Shown one piece after another: positions 46,933-53,213 of a stretch of DNA of 64,000 nucleotides. How positions within the stretch are numbered: the first letter of the stretch is position 1; the number at the start of each line of letters is the position of its first letter. The stretch lies in NCBI GenBank assembly GCA_011835815.1, contig GCA_011835815.1_3615.1; one strand, given 5' to 3'. The DNA is from a phage. The notes beneath the pieces were generated by a model that was not told the DNA's origin, searched no databases, and saw only the letters and a program-made list of their open reading frames with translations. A program made the translations under genes and the position numbers.

Positions 46933-47487
46933 ATGAAATACTTTGTAACAAGCGACACACACTTTCTCCACCAGCGGGTCATGGAGTTCGATTCATGTCA
47001 AAAACACAGATCTCAGTATGATCACAATCTTGACAGTATGAATGCGGGAATCATCACCAAGTGGAACTCTGTTGTGTCACCTGCAGACACTGTGTTTCAC
47101 TTGGGAGATATTGCGTGCACTAATGATAAGAATATCAACAAATTGCTCCCAGATATTCTAAATATGTTGAACGGACATATTATTCTTGTTCGTGGTAACC
47201 ATGACACAAGGACGACTGTCAGAATTATGAAAGAGTTCGGTCATGAGGTTGTAGATTATTACGAGCTTCGCCACAACAAGAATTTGATCTGTATGAGCCA
47301 TTACCAGTTTGCAAAGTGGAACAGAAAGCCTCACGGATCAGTCCAACTGTTCGGTCATGCTCACGGAACCACACAGCAGTTGTTTGGCAGGCAGTTTGAT
47401 GTCGGTTGGGATGTGTGGGGGAGACTCTTACCATTAGAAGAGGCATACCGTATTGCAATGAGTCTTGCTATTGACAGCGGGGAGTAA
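46933..47487 (+). CDS. calcineurin-like metallophosphoesterase, candidate 2',3'-phosphatase
   Basis: ATG at 46933 with GAGGA SD; VTSDTHF, GDIACTN and VRGNHD metallophosphatase motifs. Confidence 0.65.
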   Translation: MKYFVTSDTHFLHQRVMEFDSCQKHRSQYDHNLDSMNAGIITKWNSVVSPADTVFHLGDIACTNDKNINKLLPDILNMLNGHIILVRGNHDTRTTVRIMKEFGHEVVDYYELRHNKNLICMSHYQFAKWNRKPHGSVQLFGHAHGTTQQLFGRQFDVGWDVWGRLLPLEEAYRIAMSLAIDSGE

Positions 47488-47534
47488 TCCCTGCTATTTT
47501 AAAGAAAATTGCCACACAAGGAGAATCAGGAGAT

Positions 47535-47885
47535 ATGAAAGATGGGGATAAGCTGCTATATCTTAAAGTCCCCCTTGAAATACTGTCTATGTCAAAAGTT
47601 TTGAATGACACAACTGGGGAGGTTGTTGTTCTTGACTTATATGACAAGATCGTATACTGCTACCTGCACAACTGGTATAAGCTTGGAGGAAATTCACGCT
47701 TCACACCCAGCACAAGGAAAATTGCAGCAGATGTTGGGATAAAGAAAACAAAAGCAGCAGCGTGCGTTAAAACTTTAGAATGTGCAGGAGTGGTTGAAAT
47801 ATCCACACAAGGGAGAGGTAAAAGATGTACATTTTCCAAAGTTTTGCCACCAGAAGAGGTTATTCGAATGTCAACAACTGGTTAG
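47535..47885 (+). CDS. putative winged-helix DNA-binding protein
   Basis: 116 aa; TRKIAADVGIKKTKAAACVKTLECAGVV is HTH-like; directly upstream of the iteron array. Confidence 0.45.
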   Translation: MKDGDKLLYLKVPLEILSMSKVLNDTTGEVVVLDLYDKIVYCYLHNWYKLGGNSRFTPSTRKIAADVGIKKTKAAACVKTLECAGVVEISTQGRGKRCTFSKVLPPEEVIRMSTTG

Positions 47886-47959
47886 ACCAGTAAAAACTTA
47901 AATATCTGTACTATAAGGATTCGTATGTTTTATGTTCGCTCTGGAACAGAGGTCAGTAA

Positions 47960-48042
47960 CTGTCCGTGATACGGACACTACTGTCCGTCACGCGGACACA
48001 TCTGCCCGTAATACGGACACTAACTGTCCGTGATACGGACAC
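47960..48042. repeat. four 19-bp palindromic iterons CTGTCCGTGATACGGACAC at 21-22 bp spacing
   Basis: Copies near 47960, 47981, 48002, 48024 (two exact, two with 1-3 changes); each holds GTCCG-N5-CGGAC; AT-rich tract with ATAACTAAA x2 and GTAC-rich palindromes follows. Confidence 0.7.
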
Positions 48043-48180
48043 ATAAAGAATATAACTAAAATAACTAAATAATAAAAAATAAAAGATCTAGTACTTATGG
48101 TACTAAGTACATATACTTAACTTATGTAGAATATACTAGATCCTAAGTACCATGTTTTAAAATTATTACTTACTATAGGT

Positions 48181-48430
48181 AGTGTCGGCCCTTCATTGGC
48201 ACTCGCCTACGAGGGGCGAGATGCCGGGCCTCCTTGGTGCACACAATAACAGAAGTGCATACATGCAGGTCTGTTAACATGTGTGGGAGCGAAGCGATAG
48301 CGCAGGCCAAAGGCCGAGCACTGATGTGGACCACCGACGAAAGCTTGCCAGCGCCGTAAGGAGTCGGTTGAGAGTCTCCCGCGCGAGCTTGGATGAAGTT
48401 TATGTGTGGAAACTGACAAGAAGGCCCCTA
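48181..48430. other. GC-rich structured island, candidate ncRNA
   Basis: About 250 bp with much higher GC than surroundings, no + strand ORF, nested hairpins such as CTCGCC-UACGAGG-GGCGAG and GGCC-AAA-GGCC. Confidence 0.35.
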
Positions 48431-48545
48431 AATCGCTCCACAGCTATATAAACTATACCAGGTAATGCAATCGCACCAGTTTGATAGAAAAGCTCGTTAC
48501 AAAGTGATACAGTGAGTTTTTCTATAACTTGAAGAGGAGGCAGCT

Positions 48546-49124
48546 ATGGGTTCACGCAAAGATGACCGTGAAAAGATTGCAAAACGTTATCAGAATGAAG
48601 AACAGATGGAGAAAACTTTCAAGTGGAAGCCAGGTTTCCAGCGTAATCATTCTAACGCTCGTGATCGTAAGCATCCGGATAAGTGGTTAACACCGCCAAA
48701 TGATGGCATGCAGGTTGGTGATGAGAAGGAGCTGTCACCTGGAAAAGATGGCAACTACATTCGCACTAAGGAAGCAGGTCCAAAGGATGACAGCTATCTT
48801 GTAGATAAGGTTCTTGATGGTATTGATGTAGATGTTGACACTGCACGAAACCTTTTTCTTGGTTGGTATCGTACAGGGTTTTTCGACATCAAGGCTATTC
48901 GTCGTGTTTGTGATATTAAAAAGTCTGCCTATGATGATGACTCTCTACATCGCACTCTGAGACAATACTCAGAGAGATACGGTCATCCAGTTATCACTCT
49001 TGACGATATTAACGAAGTGATGTATCATGCAGAGGTTGTTGCAGGTAGATTCGGTGATGCATATCTCGGTATTCTTTCTGCAAAAGATGAGGTAATGTTA
49101 AATAAAATTTACTATGAACGCTGA
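48546..49124 (+). CDS. hypothetical protein
   Basis: 192-aa ORF with GAGGAGG SD. Confidence 0.6.
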   Translation: MGSRKDDREKIAKRYQNEEQMEKTFKWKPGFQRNHSNARDRKHPDKWLTPPNDGMQVGDEKELSPGKDGNYIRTKEAGPKDDSYLVDKVLDGIDVDVDTARNLFLGWYRTGFFDIKAIRRVCDIKKSAYDDDSLHRTLRQYSERYGHPVITLDDINEVMYHAEVVAGRFGDAYLGILSAKDEVMLNKIYYER

Positions 49125-49323
49125 GGAGCGCTTAATGAACAACCCGGTAGCAAAGAACTGTAATAAGTTCAACAAGTCTGCAATTCACACTGACAGGAAA
49201 AAGAGCTGGTCTCCTGACATTGACGAGGAGCTTGAGAGTTACTTTGAAGACCTGGTCACTAATGCAGATGAGGTTGCGATTAAAGAATACGCAGACAGGA
49301 AGGATAAGGCCGGAATCTGTTGA
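49114..49323 (+). CDS. hypothetical protein
   Basis: 69-aa ORF overlapping preceding stop. Confidence 0.45.
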   Translation: MNAEERLMNNPVAKNCNKFNKSAIHTDRKKSWSPDIDEELESYFEDLVTNADEVAIKEYADRKDKAGIC

Positions 49324-50424: not shown

Positions 50425-50499
50425 GCCCTGTTAGCTTAGTGGATAAAGCAGCGGCCTTCTAAGCCGTTGACACTGGTTCGAGTCCAGTACGGGGTGCCA
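50425..50499 (+). tRNA. tRNA-Arg (anticodon UCU)
   Basis: Hand-folded cloverleaf: acceptor GCCCTGT/ACGGGGT, anticodon loop CTTCTAA, T-loop GGTTCGAGTCC, encoded CCA. Confidence 0.75.
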
Positions 50500-50629
50500 A
50501 GTTCTTTTTAATGTAGCTTACTTTAGCAGAGTAAATCTTCGGCAAGTGGCGGTAACCACTTTACCGATACCTCATAGTTAGTGGTGAGAACACTAGCTAT
50601 TTTAAAAAGAATTTAAATATTAGTATTTA

Positions 50630-50717
50630 GGTGAGTTAATTCCGTAGGGGTAGCGGGGCAGACTGTAAATCTGTTATCATTGCGATTCGGGTGGTTCGAC
50701 TCCATCACTCACCACCA
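50630..50717 (+). tRNA. tRNA-Tyr (anticodon GUA), class II
   Basis: Acceptor GGTGAGT/ACTCACC, anticodon arm GCAGA-CTGTAAA-TCTGT, long variable arm, T-loop GGTTCGACTCC, CCA; D-arm register uncertain. Confidence 0.65.
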
Positions 50718-50821
50718 AATTTATATTTTTAAATGCATAAATCATACAGATAATGGCATTGATATTTATCGTCGTTTATACTAGTCACTAACTGCTCGAA
50801 AATCAGTGTCATTATCAGTAT

Positions 50822-50912
50822 AATTTATAAAGGAGGGTAGGGAGCAATGGTGCTCAAGCGGTCTTGAAAACCGCCCCGTTGAGGATGACTCGATGATGGT
50901 TCGATTCCATTA
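50822..50912 (+). tRNA. tRNA-Ser (anticodon UGA), class II
   Basis: Acceptor GGAGGGT/ACTCTCC, anticodon arm GCGGT-CTTGAAA-ACCGC, long variable arm, T-loop GGTTCGATTCC, CCA. Confidence 0.65.
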
Positions 50913-51020
50913 CTCTCCGCCACATTGTTGACCTTGTAATTAAGCGAAAGCCGGAAGCAGAACCGGATTATCAAATGTTACAGTCGTCATCGCCGACTAG
51001 CAACATGGTCAACATACTGA

Positions 51021-51119
51021 GCTAGGTAAGCCCTTTGGCAAGGGCGAGGATTTTTAATCCTGAAAATAGACGAGGTAGTCGTTGAATACATAGGTGGTTC
51101 GATTCCATCGCCTAGCACC
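51021..51119 (+). tRNA. atypical tRNA-like gene (about 97 nt), anticodon possibly UUU (Lys)
   Basis: Perfect acceptor GCTAGGT/GCCTAGC, D-arm GCCC-TTTGGCAA-GGGC, anticodon-like hairpin GAGGA-TTTTTAA-TCCTG, canonical T-arm; but about 30 nt inserted between anticodon stem and T-stem. Confidence 0.4.
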
Positions 51120-51124
51120 TTTTT

Positions 51125-51200
51125 GCTGATGTAGCACAATCGGTAGTGCAATTGATTTGTAATCAATAGGTTGTAGGTTCAAGTCCTGCCATCAGCACCA
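51125..51200 (+). tRNA. tRNA-Thr (anticodon UGU)
   Basis: Acceptor GCTGATG/CATCAGC, D-stem GCAC/GTGC, anticodon arm ATTGA-TTTGTAA-TCAAT, T-loop GGTTCAAGTCC, CCA. Confidence 0.75.
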
Positions 51201-51201
51201 A

Positions 51202-51276
51202 GGCCCTGTAGCTGGAAGGTTCAAGCAAGCGACTCATAATCGCCAGACGGTGGTTCAATTCCACCCAGGGCCACCA
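51202..51276 (+). tRNA. tRNA-Met or Ile2 (anticodon CAU)
   Basis: Acceptor GGCCCTG/CAGGGCC, anticodon loop CTCATAA, T-loop GGTTCAATTCC, CCA; not initiator-like. Confidence 0.7.
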
Positions 51277-51287
51277 AATAGTAAATA

Positions 51288-51364
51288 CTCCGCGTAGCTC
51301 AGCTTGGTAGAGCGCCTGATTTGGGATCAGGAGGTCGAGTGTTCGAATCACTCCGTGGAGACCA
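51288..51364 (+). tRNA. tRNA-Pro (anticodon UGG)
   Basis: Acceptor CTCCGCG/CGTGGAG, D-stem GCTC/GAGC, anticodon arm CCTGA-TTTGGGA-TCAGG, T-loop GTTCGAATC, CCA. Confidence 0.75.
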
Positions 51365-52468: not shown

Positions 52469-52893
52469 TGTCTAAGATTTACGGACCGTGTTCTGAAAAG
52501 CAGAAGATGATCCTCGAAAACGATGCAGATATTTTGGTAATCGGCGGTGCCGCAGGGTCTGGCAAGTCGTTCCTCTTGCAGTTGATGCCGCTTAAAATTA
52601 TTGATGACCCCCACAGCTCTGTGGTTATGTTCCGAAGAACAACCCCACAGTTGGAAGGTGAGGGTGGGCTATGGCCTAAAGCAGTAGCTATTTATAGTGA
52701 TCTGCCTGAAAACATTAAGCCAAAGTTCAGAGAGAAGGATCATAAGTTCATTTTCCCACGGTTTGATCCGAGCACTGGCAAGTGGGATAGAAGCAAAAAG
52801 GGAGCTGTTGTAAAATACTGCCACATGGAGTATGTCCAAGATAAGCTTAACCATCAAGGTCTTGAGTACACCATGGTTTGCTTCGATGAGGGT
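52468..52893 (+). CDS. terL: terminase large subunit, exon 1 (ATPase N-terminus)
   Basis: Walker A VIGGAAGSGKS and Walker B-like MVCFDEG; reading frame is broken by a stop just after FDEG where the intron begins. Confidence 0.8.
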
Positions 52894-53213
52894 TAATTTG
52901 TAGCTCTCGTAAAACCTCCCTAATTGCGGGGAAATCTTTACTATTAATACCACCAACCTGTCATGGTAACATGATAGAGGCTTCGAAGAGAGATCGAAGG
53001 TATGGTAACAGTGTGTTAATTTAGATAATCCGCAGCGAAGCATCCGAGAGGATGAACGTTCAACGACTAGTCGAAAGACGTAGAATCAAGCGATTCGAAA
53101 CGGGAGGGTAAGCGGTTGTTGTCGCTTATAAGATATAGTCTGGTCTGCATGGAGACATGCAGCTGCCTGAAAAATGGCGGGGCAAGACTAGCGACCTTGC
53201 CCGAACATAGACG
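52894..53213 (+). other. group I self-splicing intron (no ORF) within terL
   Basis: Conserved core elements in order: P AATTGCGGGGAAA, Q AATCCGCAGC, R GTTCAACGACTA, S AAGATATAGTC; exon ends in U that can pair with internal guide GCTCTC; intron ends in G; P9-like hairpins; boundaries +/- 3 nt. Confidence 0.8.

Follow-up and report, generated by a model that had tools for sequence, protein, structure and literature searches.

A candidate lambda-type replication origin with a DNA-binding-only initiator in rV5-like coliphages

Introduction

The iteron plasmids pPS10 (RepA), RK2 (TrfA), R6K (pi), F (RepE), and P1 (RepA) combine a winged-helix initiator, iterons, and an AT-rich unwinding element that contains short repeats. 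Monomers bind their iterons, which are asymmetric direct repeats, and autorepression uses inverted repeats. In the large virulent myovirus T4, oriE with RepEA and RepEB is an iteron-containing origin with small origin-specific proteins, and T4 origins work largely via R-loops and recombination. Structured GC-rich signals acting as single strands are found just beyond the AT-rich part of origins, as in G4 oric, ColE1 pas, and RSF1010 ssiA/ssiB. From what is known of T7 gp4, helicases of the gp4 type can load themselves.

Iteron origins of the O-like kind are already known, as ori-lambda in gene O. The N-terminus of lambda O was described as HTH_36-like by HHpred (PMC5509034). According to PMC8951638, experimental studies of the replication proteins in non-lambdoid (Eru) units of Stx phages are lacking, and we found no experimental study of the HTH_36 O-like initiator class. 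Phage rV5 encodes a gp4d/DnaB-type primase-helicase, no mapped origin has been reported for it, and the changes of skew in its genome track transcription direction only (PMC3606486). Our literature search also found no description of an rV5 origin. Phages of the rV5 type have been isolated widely, and they serve as candidates for E. coli biocontrol and therapy. A defined origin with its binding protein would give a handle for engineering, replication studies, and marker-frequency work. Here we describe a locus of these phages which probably represents such an origin.

Results

The locus and its relatives

The DNA analyzed (the window) is a stretch of 64,000 nucleotides. The 1.2 kb around a repeat array in it showed 93-99.9% identity to 119 phage records, all of Vequintavirus (rV5-like E. 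coli myoviruses), and by this comparison the source of the window is identified as a Vequintavirus coliphage. The module was present in all 119 records, each at least 93% identical over the region. The records include a set named 'UNVERIFIED Campylobacter phage', which is the same virus as the rV5-like phage. As a full-length reference we used a relative of 137,167 bp, 99.9% identical to the window over the 1.2-kb region. Database annotation of the locus consisted of generic predicted names or an unexplained 'repeat_region', and nothing more. The features are as follows.

47535-47885, + strand: gene of a 116-aa winged-helix protein (HTH_36/DUF6945-type), the proposed origin-binding initiator (351-bp ORF and profiles)
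47936-47957, no strand assigned: hypervariable 22-bp patch just 5' of iteron 1 (genome alignment)
47960-48042, + strand: four 19-bp dyad-symmetric iterons, candidate sites for dimers of the 116-aa protein (sequence reading and repeat finder)
47960-47978: iteron 1, CTGTCCGTGATACGGACAC
47981-47999: iteron 2, CTGTCCGTCACGCGGACAC
48002-48020: iteron 3, CTGCCCGTAATACGGACAC
48024-48042: iteron 4, CTGTCCGTGATACGGACAC
48043-48086, + strand: A-rich tract, a proposed DNA unwinding element (composition, conservation, and layout)
48087-48150, no strand assigned: conserved AT-rich segment with GTAC-containing palindromes and two GATC sites (read directly)
48180-48480, + strand: GC-rich, ORF-free, conserved structured element (folding, covariation, and plasmid matches)
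48187-48230: 5' hairpin of the GC-rich element
about 48279-48480: multi-helix core of the GC-rich element

The gene of the 116-aa protein is preceded by an RNA ligase gene on the - strand and then by genes for a P-loop kinase and a metallophosphoesterase. It is followed by 660 bp without a credible ORF, the gene of a 192-aa protein, small ORFs, a tRNA cluster, spanin, and terminase. A divergent transcription junction (46414/46458) is found 1.1-1.5 kb to the left of the locus. The minimum of the cumulative GC skew falls at this junction both in the window and in the full-length relative, and the array is about 2 kb from the global minimum of the 137-kb relative genome. Since GC skew follows transcription direction, the minimum is not independent evidence for an origin.

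The synteny of the module was not kept in the sister genera compared (4MG, a Mydovirus, and a Justusliebigvirus). The protein 4MG_094 is a weak homologue of the 116-aa protein and adjoins an A-rich tract, which is only suggestive of a related module.

An array of dyad-symmetric iterons followed by an A-rich tract

An initial annotation of this DNA had noted four 19-bp repeats at 21-22-bp spacing, and the repeat finder returned the same four, starting at 47960, 47981, 48002, and 48024 (21, 21, and 22 bp from start to start). Iterons 1 and 4 are identical; iteron 2 differs from them by 3 bases and iteron 3 by 2. Every copy had been read as the inverted repeat GTCCG-N5-CGGAC. This was correct for copies 1, 2, and 4, which are perfect, but copy 3 has one mismatch in an arm (GCCCG). 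The AT-rich stretch with direct repeats and the GTAC-rich palindromes, which the annotation placed after the array, were likewise found. The 70 bp 3' of the array are 81% A+T, compared with 58% for the locus, with A making up 56% on the + strand, and two tandem ATAACTAAA 9-mers lie inside the A-rich tract at 48052-48069. The GTAC-containing palindromes were read directly at about 48090-48150. Across all of the 137-kb relative genome, the 100-bp stretch with the highest A+T content starts directly after the array.

When TGTCCG-N5-CGGACA was searched with up to two mismatches, 6 matches were found in the 64-kb window against 1.1 +/- 0.95 expected, a number reached in none of 100 shuffles. All four matches with zero or one mismatch fall inside the array, and in the 137,167-bp relative genome the array is the sole cluster of the motif. 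The number of iterons differs among isolates, being 4 in most, 2 in YN3, and 6 in O157 typing phage 14. These shifts occur in steps of 42 bp, as expected for iterons. The single isolate that is down to two, YN3, counts against reading the locus as an origin.

Some records annotate a small ORF that runs through the iterons. We rejected it as spurious; it stays open there only because 21 bp equal 7 codons, and its N-terminal portion falls within the hypervariable patch. A scan of the + strand from 47501 to 48700, covering the sigma-70 consensus as distinct from phage-specific promoters, detected no sigma-70-like promoter, and in the array and the AT tract there was no terminator either. No DnaA box (TTATNCACA, up to one mismatch), the mark of a DnaA-dependent origin, was present in 47808-48799.

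We aligned five relatives, including the most divergent, Aya, whose 116-aa protein is 89% identical. Only three positions of the 83-bp array varied. Two of them are inside iterons, namely 47970 (spacer of iteron 1) and 47988 (left arm of iteron 2), and the third, 47979, falls between the first two iterons. Three positions varied in the 100 bp after the array, and within 48087-48142 there were only 2 (5 genomes aligned). Thus in the relatives compared the iterons and the A-rich tract are nearly invariant with variable flanks, a pattern of purifying selection, and this near-invariance indicates strong selection at the DNA level. The patch at 47936-47957 varies at 21 of its 22 positions in 5 genomes that share about 93-99% identity elsewhere. 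Between the window and phage naam, 9 differences fall in the patch by hand count from the alignment, of roughly 14 overall as implied by 98.8% identity over 1201 bp.

The adjacent gene encodes a winged-helix protein without a C-terminal domain

The putative winged-helix gene of the initial annotation at 47535-47885 proved to be a real ORF with profile matches. Pfam scores were slightly below the cut-offs for both HTH_36 (24.5 bits, cut-off 25) and DUF6945 (27.1 bits, cut-off 28), and the protein matched PHROG 12838, 'replication initiation protein', with an E-value of 2.5e-80. Weak matches were obtained to PHROGs 8102, 428, and 270, all three common to O-like proteins. Alignment by hhalign with the N-terminal domains of iteron-bearing O-like proteins gave 91% probability and an E-value of 1e-6, over a profile alignment of 50 columns. 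These results suggest, marginally, that the 116-aa protein is a remote homologue of the O-like HTH_36 domain. Its homologue of solved structure was PDB 4RO3 (E 1.4e-6), after which CodY-type repressors ranked weakly.

Relatives of the protein are few. A search of 5.8 billion protein sequences returned relatives only at genus level (at least 86% identity), no homologue outside Vequintavirus was found at 1e-3 in 50,697 phage records, and a protein-based scan of IMG/VR gave no match. When 1.84 billion representatives were searched exhaustively with HMMER, 10 matched: the cluster of the protein itself (P0001), a fragment of it of 41 aa, and 8 weaker ones, 5 of which carried HTH_36 or DUF6945. A single-sequence AlphaFold model had a pLDDT of 42 and was therefore set aside.

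The protein ends after the winged helix and is without the C-terminal domain seen in every full-length family member. Its stop codon is at 47883-47885, iteron 1 starts 75 bp beyond, and all three frames are closed in between. A profile search of the six frames of 47886-49130 found no remnant of a C-terminal domain. A split initiator with the 192-aa neighbor as the C-terminal half was rejected (hhalign probability 0.1%), as was a pseudogenised C-terminal domain within the GC-rich region (no six-frame match). Because the protein lacks this domain and the iterons are intergenic, the locus appears to be a cut-down O-type module. The adjacent DNA-binding protein proposed in the initial annotation would thus be a remote O-like homologue, in a truncated version with the DNA-binding part only.

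The same iterons occur inside O-like initiator genes

The HTH_36 O-like group considered here consists of modules of temperate phages and prophages, and comprises IMG/VR contigs L014-L032, phi24B O, and the HTH_36-type Eru units of Stx phages. The IMG/VR contigs came from a DNA-only pattern scan for two GTCCG-N5-CGGAC sites 21 bp apart, which picked out 21 viral contigs. Their GC content ranges from 29% to 70%, and each carries 2-7 copies in tandem, for the most part at 21-bp intervals. At least 14 of the contigs have the array embedded in an ORF of 215-313 aa with an N-terminal HTH_36, 'replication initiation O-like'. HTH_36 was above the cut-off in 12 array-bearing proteins, and matches were to the O-like PHROGs 391, 678, 1032, and 270 ('replication initiation O-like', 'primosomal protein'). 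In the array-bearing ORFs, the array is placed directly after the part coding for the winged helix and before the C-terminal domain. It is translated in two frames among the contigs, giving peptides of VRQAD type and QSACRT type, and the constraint is therefore on the DNA site rather than on the peptide. In genome contigs the iteron pattern was found, among the matches listed, in high-GC genomes (Kofleriaceae, Streptomyces), and these matches were uninformative.

The 70 bp past the last iteron were AT-enriched in every family locus, with A exceeding T on the gene strand in nearly all. Most family loci also had short direct repeats there, 2-4 at a period of about 11 bp (AACCGTCAA, TAACCTA). This period is no multiple of three. 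The junction ...CGGACAC(T/A)... was common to the window and the L014-L032 contigs. Palindromic iterons of other sequence were found at the same position in phi24B O, mEp460, and Stenotrophomonas phage CUB19, spaced 17-42 bp apart and mostly 21-24 bp. Specificity therefore shifts while the architecture is kept. In phi24B, the HTH_36 O gene is followed by a gp4D-type helicase gene.

The match in iteron DNA and the match in the protein domain are thus two independent pointers to the same kind of module. From these comparisons we conclude that the protein domain and the DNA layout are homologous to those of O-like initiator/origin modules.

A structured GC-rich element is shared with satellite-like plasmids

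The region 48180-48480 is highly conserved, richer in G+C than its surroundings, and contains no credible ORF. Its RNA fold was better than that of shuffled sequences (z = -3.3). A search of Rfam 15 gave nothing at the gathering score, the best sub-threshold match reaching 22.9 bits against a gathering score of 100.

A 62-nt core of this element showed 85.5% identity to unannotated DNA of small E. coli plasmids, and the plasmid matches covered up to 21% of a 616-nt query (about 85% identity). The plasmids are small circular E. coli elements of 13.2-13.7 kb; one plasmid record of 39.6 kb is a trimer of a 13,531-bp unit. In a blastn search of 5,426 E. coli genomes, which is insensitive to short sites, the GC-rich part alone was matched. 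On the plasmids, seven repeats of the CCGGTAAATATTTCCGG type, several at a spacing of 23 bp, are followed by a triple repeat rich in A+T, and then by the GC-rich element, small ORFs, and an HTH_36 O-like Rep. The order of iterons, AT-rich region, and GC-rich element is common to the plasmids and the window, and ATATACTTAA of the 48087-48150 segment recurs in the AT-rich repeats of the plasmids.

A consensus structure of four phages and three plasmids had 37 pairs, with 96.5% of cells paired. Compensatory changes were found at 6 pairs, compared with 0-1 in slid controls, three of the six within one 6-bp helix. As in effect two lineages are compared, this covariation is support, not proof. One invariant U-G pair points to the + strand as the one that folds.

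The plasmids also encode diverged homologues of rV5-type proteins: the major capsid protein (24.5% identity), tape measure, a baseplate protein (50% identity, E 7e-61), and two others. The best matches of the plasmid capsid in the phage collection were all Vequintavirus, and no terminase is annotated on the 13.5-kb plasmids. The plasmids resemble a family of satellites or mini-phages, so far undescribed, with a link to rV5-like helpers.

Discussion

The locus as a probable replication origin

We consider it likely, although well short of certain, that this locus is the vegetative replication origin of rV5-like phages, of lambda type (O-protein design) and with a DNA-binding-only initiator. An iteron origin had been proposed from the sequence alone on the strength of the classic, plasmid-like layout. 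The comparative evidence, namely the HTH_36 O-like loci, which weigh most, the AT-richest tract of the genome, and the uniqueness of the array, favors an origin, but not the plasmid-like design. As far as sequence comparison can tell, the element is lambda/O-like, rather than plasmid-like with monomer-bound direct repeats.

As a mechanism, we propose that dimers of the 116-aa protein would bind the four dyad-symmetric iterons. Since the iterons are two helical turns apart, the dimers could sit on one face of the DNA. The nucleoprotein complex would distort the DNA and open the adjoining A-rich tract, where the gp4-type primase-helicase of the phage would load without a loader of the lambda-P/DnaB type. 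The structured GC-rich element may act in priming or in loading of the helicase, or may give rise to an origin transcript. We infer every one of these steps, from binding and unwinding to helicase loading and any role of the GC-rich element. A self-loading gp4-type helicase would explain the missing loader-recruiting C-terminal domain. It is plausible that the C-terminus of lambda O exists to recruit P-DnaB and is dispensable in a phage with its own primase-helicase.

Several observations run counter to an origin. The Pfam scores are just below their cut-offs, the iterons lie beyond the stop codon, and the C-terminal domain is absent. Large virulent phages may depend mainly on recombination-dependent replication, and an initiator reduced to its DNA-binding part could have taken on a regulatory role.

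For the GC-rich element, the candidate roles are a signal that works as a single strand in priming or helicase loading, a transcript of the origin, or a packaging signal common to helper and satellite. A wider form of the origin reading would join the iterons, the unwinding tract, and the structured single-strand element into a three-part cis module, working with a minimal O and a self-loading gp4-type primase-helicase, with the GC-rich part as a helper signal copied by the 13.5-kb plasmid satellites. The helper machinery would then recognize the GC-rich element for priming and helicase loading, or for packaging. We put this forward tentatively and regard it as doubtful.

Alternative explanations

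The main alternative is an operator array. The 116-aa protein would then be an initiator-derived regulator which, bound to the four sites, would stop read-through or repress a promoter of the AT-rich tract. What it would control in this way are the GC-rich element, the gene of the 192-aa protein, and the tRNA cluster. We think this unlikely. The protein is called 'putative transcriptional regulator' in many GenBank records, a name which, like 'replication initiation protein', is a database prediction. It has a DNA-binding domain only, its sites are palindromic as is typical for dimeric repressors, the CodY-type matches rank next after 4RO3, if weakly, and the array lies between two gene blocks of one long transcription unit. 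On the other hand, the scan showed no sigma-70-like promoter in or beside the array, which is moreover 3' of the protein's own gene and not at that gene's promoter. The homologous arrays are part of the coding sequence of initiators, an unlikely place for an operator, and four helically phased sites followed by the AT-richest tract of the genome form the layout of an origin.

It is less probable still, and in our view quite improbable, that the repeats, the GC-rich element, or both start headful packaging as a pac region, with the 116-aa protein acting like a small terminase. The phage is circularly permuted and headful-packaged, and the papers examined report no located pac site. The large terminase gene lies about 4 kb downstream of the array, and no small terminase is annotated in the stretch examined. 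The assembly MG065672 starts at window position 47957, the edge of the array, but as just one record starts there, and at a tandem repeat, this may be an artefact of assembly. At the nucleotide level, the phage and the 13.5-kb satellite-like plasmids, which have no annotated terminase, match best in the GC-rich element, and satellites usually copy the packaging signal of their helper. However, the plasmids have this element with other iterons, and therefore the argument for packaging covers at most 48180-48480. The iterons and the protein domain, for their part, are homologous to origin modules and not to terminase systems.

A role in competition or as a decoy is conceivable but the least probable of all: a captured lambdoid origin fragment with a DNA-binding-only protein would act against co-resident phages or satellites with GTCCG-type origins or, in a variant, would be a selfish remnant that does not replicate the phage itself. 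The confinement of protein and module to one genus with synteny absent in sister genera, the truncated initiator, and a hypervariable patch adjoining the array, as might suit an arms race, fit such a role, but no E. coli element with GTCCG-type iterons appeared in the blastn search of 5,426 genomes (insensitive to short sites), the satellite-like plasmids carry different iterons, and the unwinding tract, which a decoy would not need, is strictly conserved.

Comparison with known origins

The replication origin, which we favor over these alternatives, is best compared with ori-lambda. Both have four tandem iterons (18-19 bp) with internal dyad symmetry, about two helical turns apart (20/24/23 bp in lambda, 21/21/22 bp in the window), and an A-rich tract of about 40 bp on the same side of the iterons, followed by palindromic sequence. 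The iterons themselves differ, being TCCCTC-N6-GAGGGA in lambda and GTCCG-N5-CGGAC in the window, and BLASTP of the 116-aa protein against lambda O found no similarity. The lambda origin lies inside gene O between the N- and C-terminal parts, whereas the candidate origin in the window lies outside, downstream of the gene. Lambda O has a C-terminal P-binding domain and the 116-aa protein has none. Unlike lambda, the genome that carries the window's locus is that of a 137-kb virulent myovirus encoding its own primase-helicase. The truncated initiator suggests how a lambda-type origin adapts to a phage with its own helicase-primase.

The HTH_36 O-like modules of contigs L014-L032 share the identical GTCCG-N5-CGGAC consensus, the 21-bp period, and the A-rich tract. 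Their proteins are of 215-313 aa with a DnaT-like/primosomal C-terminal domain and the origin in the gene, compared with 116 aa and an intergenic array in the window. A rule for HTH_36 O-like initiators emerges, in which palindromic iterons mostly 21-24 bp apart follow the part coding for the winged-helix domain, and an A-rich tract with short repeats comes next. This rule should be usable for predicting origins in prophages, including Stx phages.

Other systems are more distant. The sites of iteron plasmids are asymmetric and direct, whereas every site in the window is palindromic, as in lambda. T4 oriE is a precedent for an iteron-containing origin in a large virulent myovirus, with no sequence relationship expected. 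The likeness of G4 oric, ColE1 pas, and RSF1010 ssi to the 48180-48480 element is one of structure and placement. What appears to be new here, as the best supported reading of the sequence comparisons, is an iteron origin of the lambda/O-like kind in a large virulent myovirus, with an initiator that would consist of the DNA-binding domain only and with the origin outside the gene.

Satellite-like plasmids sharing the GC-rich element

The conserved GC-rich structured element was common to Vequintavirus and a family of circular E. coli "plasmids" of 13.2-13.7 kb (NZ_CP020521, NZ_CP035869, CP148565, CP134895, and NZ_CP178698). NZ_CP043822 belonged to the same family and was trimeric, its unit being 13,531 bp long. 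The loci concerned were as follows, L-numbers being sequence handles for the plasmids.

Window 48180-48480, plus strand: GC-rich structured element
L039:985-1400; L040/L041, L162, and L163: plasmid loci

The capsid, tape-measure, and baseplate genes of these plasmids were diverged homologues of rV5-type genes, and an O-like Rep of the HTH_36 type was present with its own iterons; no terminase was annotated. The plasmids resemble a so far undescribed family of satellites or mini-phages with rV5-like phages as helpers.

The motif TGTGTGG(G) was repeated in the phage element (48279-48286 and 48404-48410), and several copies of it, some in each orientation, were found in the L039/L040 non-coding sequence. 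It may be a protein-binding site acting at the DNA level.

Database records of related phages

The assembly in record MG065672.1 has its first base at position 47957 of the window, on the border of the iteron array. Eighteen UNVERIFIED "Campylobacter phage" records (MG0656xx) were ordinary Vequintavirus genomes. The same element was present in CP057073.1, a 137.5-kb E. coli "plasmid" that is probably an rV5-like phage genome.

tRNA cluster and group I intron

Other features of the window were the following.

50425-51364: tRNA cluster (Arg-TCT, Ser-TGA, Thr-TGT, Met-CAT, Pro-TGG)
50630-50714: Rfam tRNA match without an ARAGORN call, within the cluster
51021-51119: ARAGORN call with a four-base anticodon loop "atcc", within the cluster
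52884-53162: group I intron (84.1 bits to Rfam RF00028), within or adjoining the large terminase gene region

In relatives, the tRNA match at 50630-50714 was annotated as tRNA-Tyr or pseudo-tRNA.

Sequences flanking the winged-helix gene and a possible counterpart in phage 4MG

The phosphoesterase gene ends in a hairpin that has a GTAA loop and is followed by ATTTT (47465-47500); in phage Murica this hairpin carries a terminator annotation. The winged-helix gene may have a promoter of its own, because a sigma-70-like promoter (TTGACA-18-TATTTT with TG) lies directly upstream, overlapping this hairpin.

Directly 5ʹ of iteron 1, 21 of the 22 positions in 47936-47957 were variable among genomes that were elsewhere 93-99% identical, with no indels in this patch among the genomes compared. 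Between the window and naam, by our own count, nine differences fell inside it, of about 14 implied over 1201 bp. The alleles tracked lineage, Murica being identical to YN3.

In phage 4MG (Seunavirus), the 105-aa HTH protein 4MG_094 showed weak homology to the window protein, with 35% identity across 48 aa. Its gene was sited at a divergent junction and adjoined by a pair of TCAAATTGA palindromes at 23-bp spacing, together with an A-rich tract and repeats of AGATCT. This locus (L008:2169-2640) may be the equivalent origin in a sister genus.
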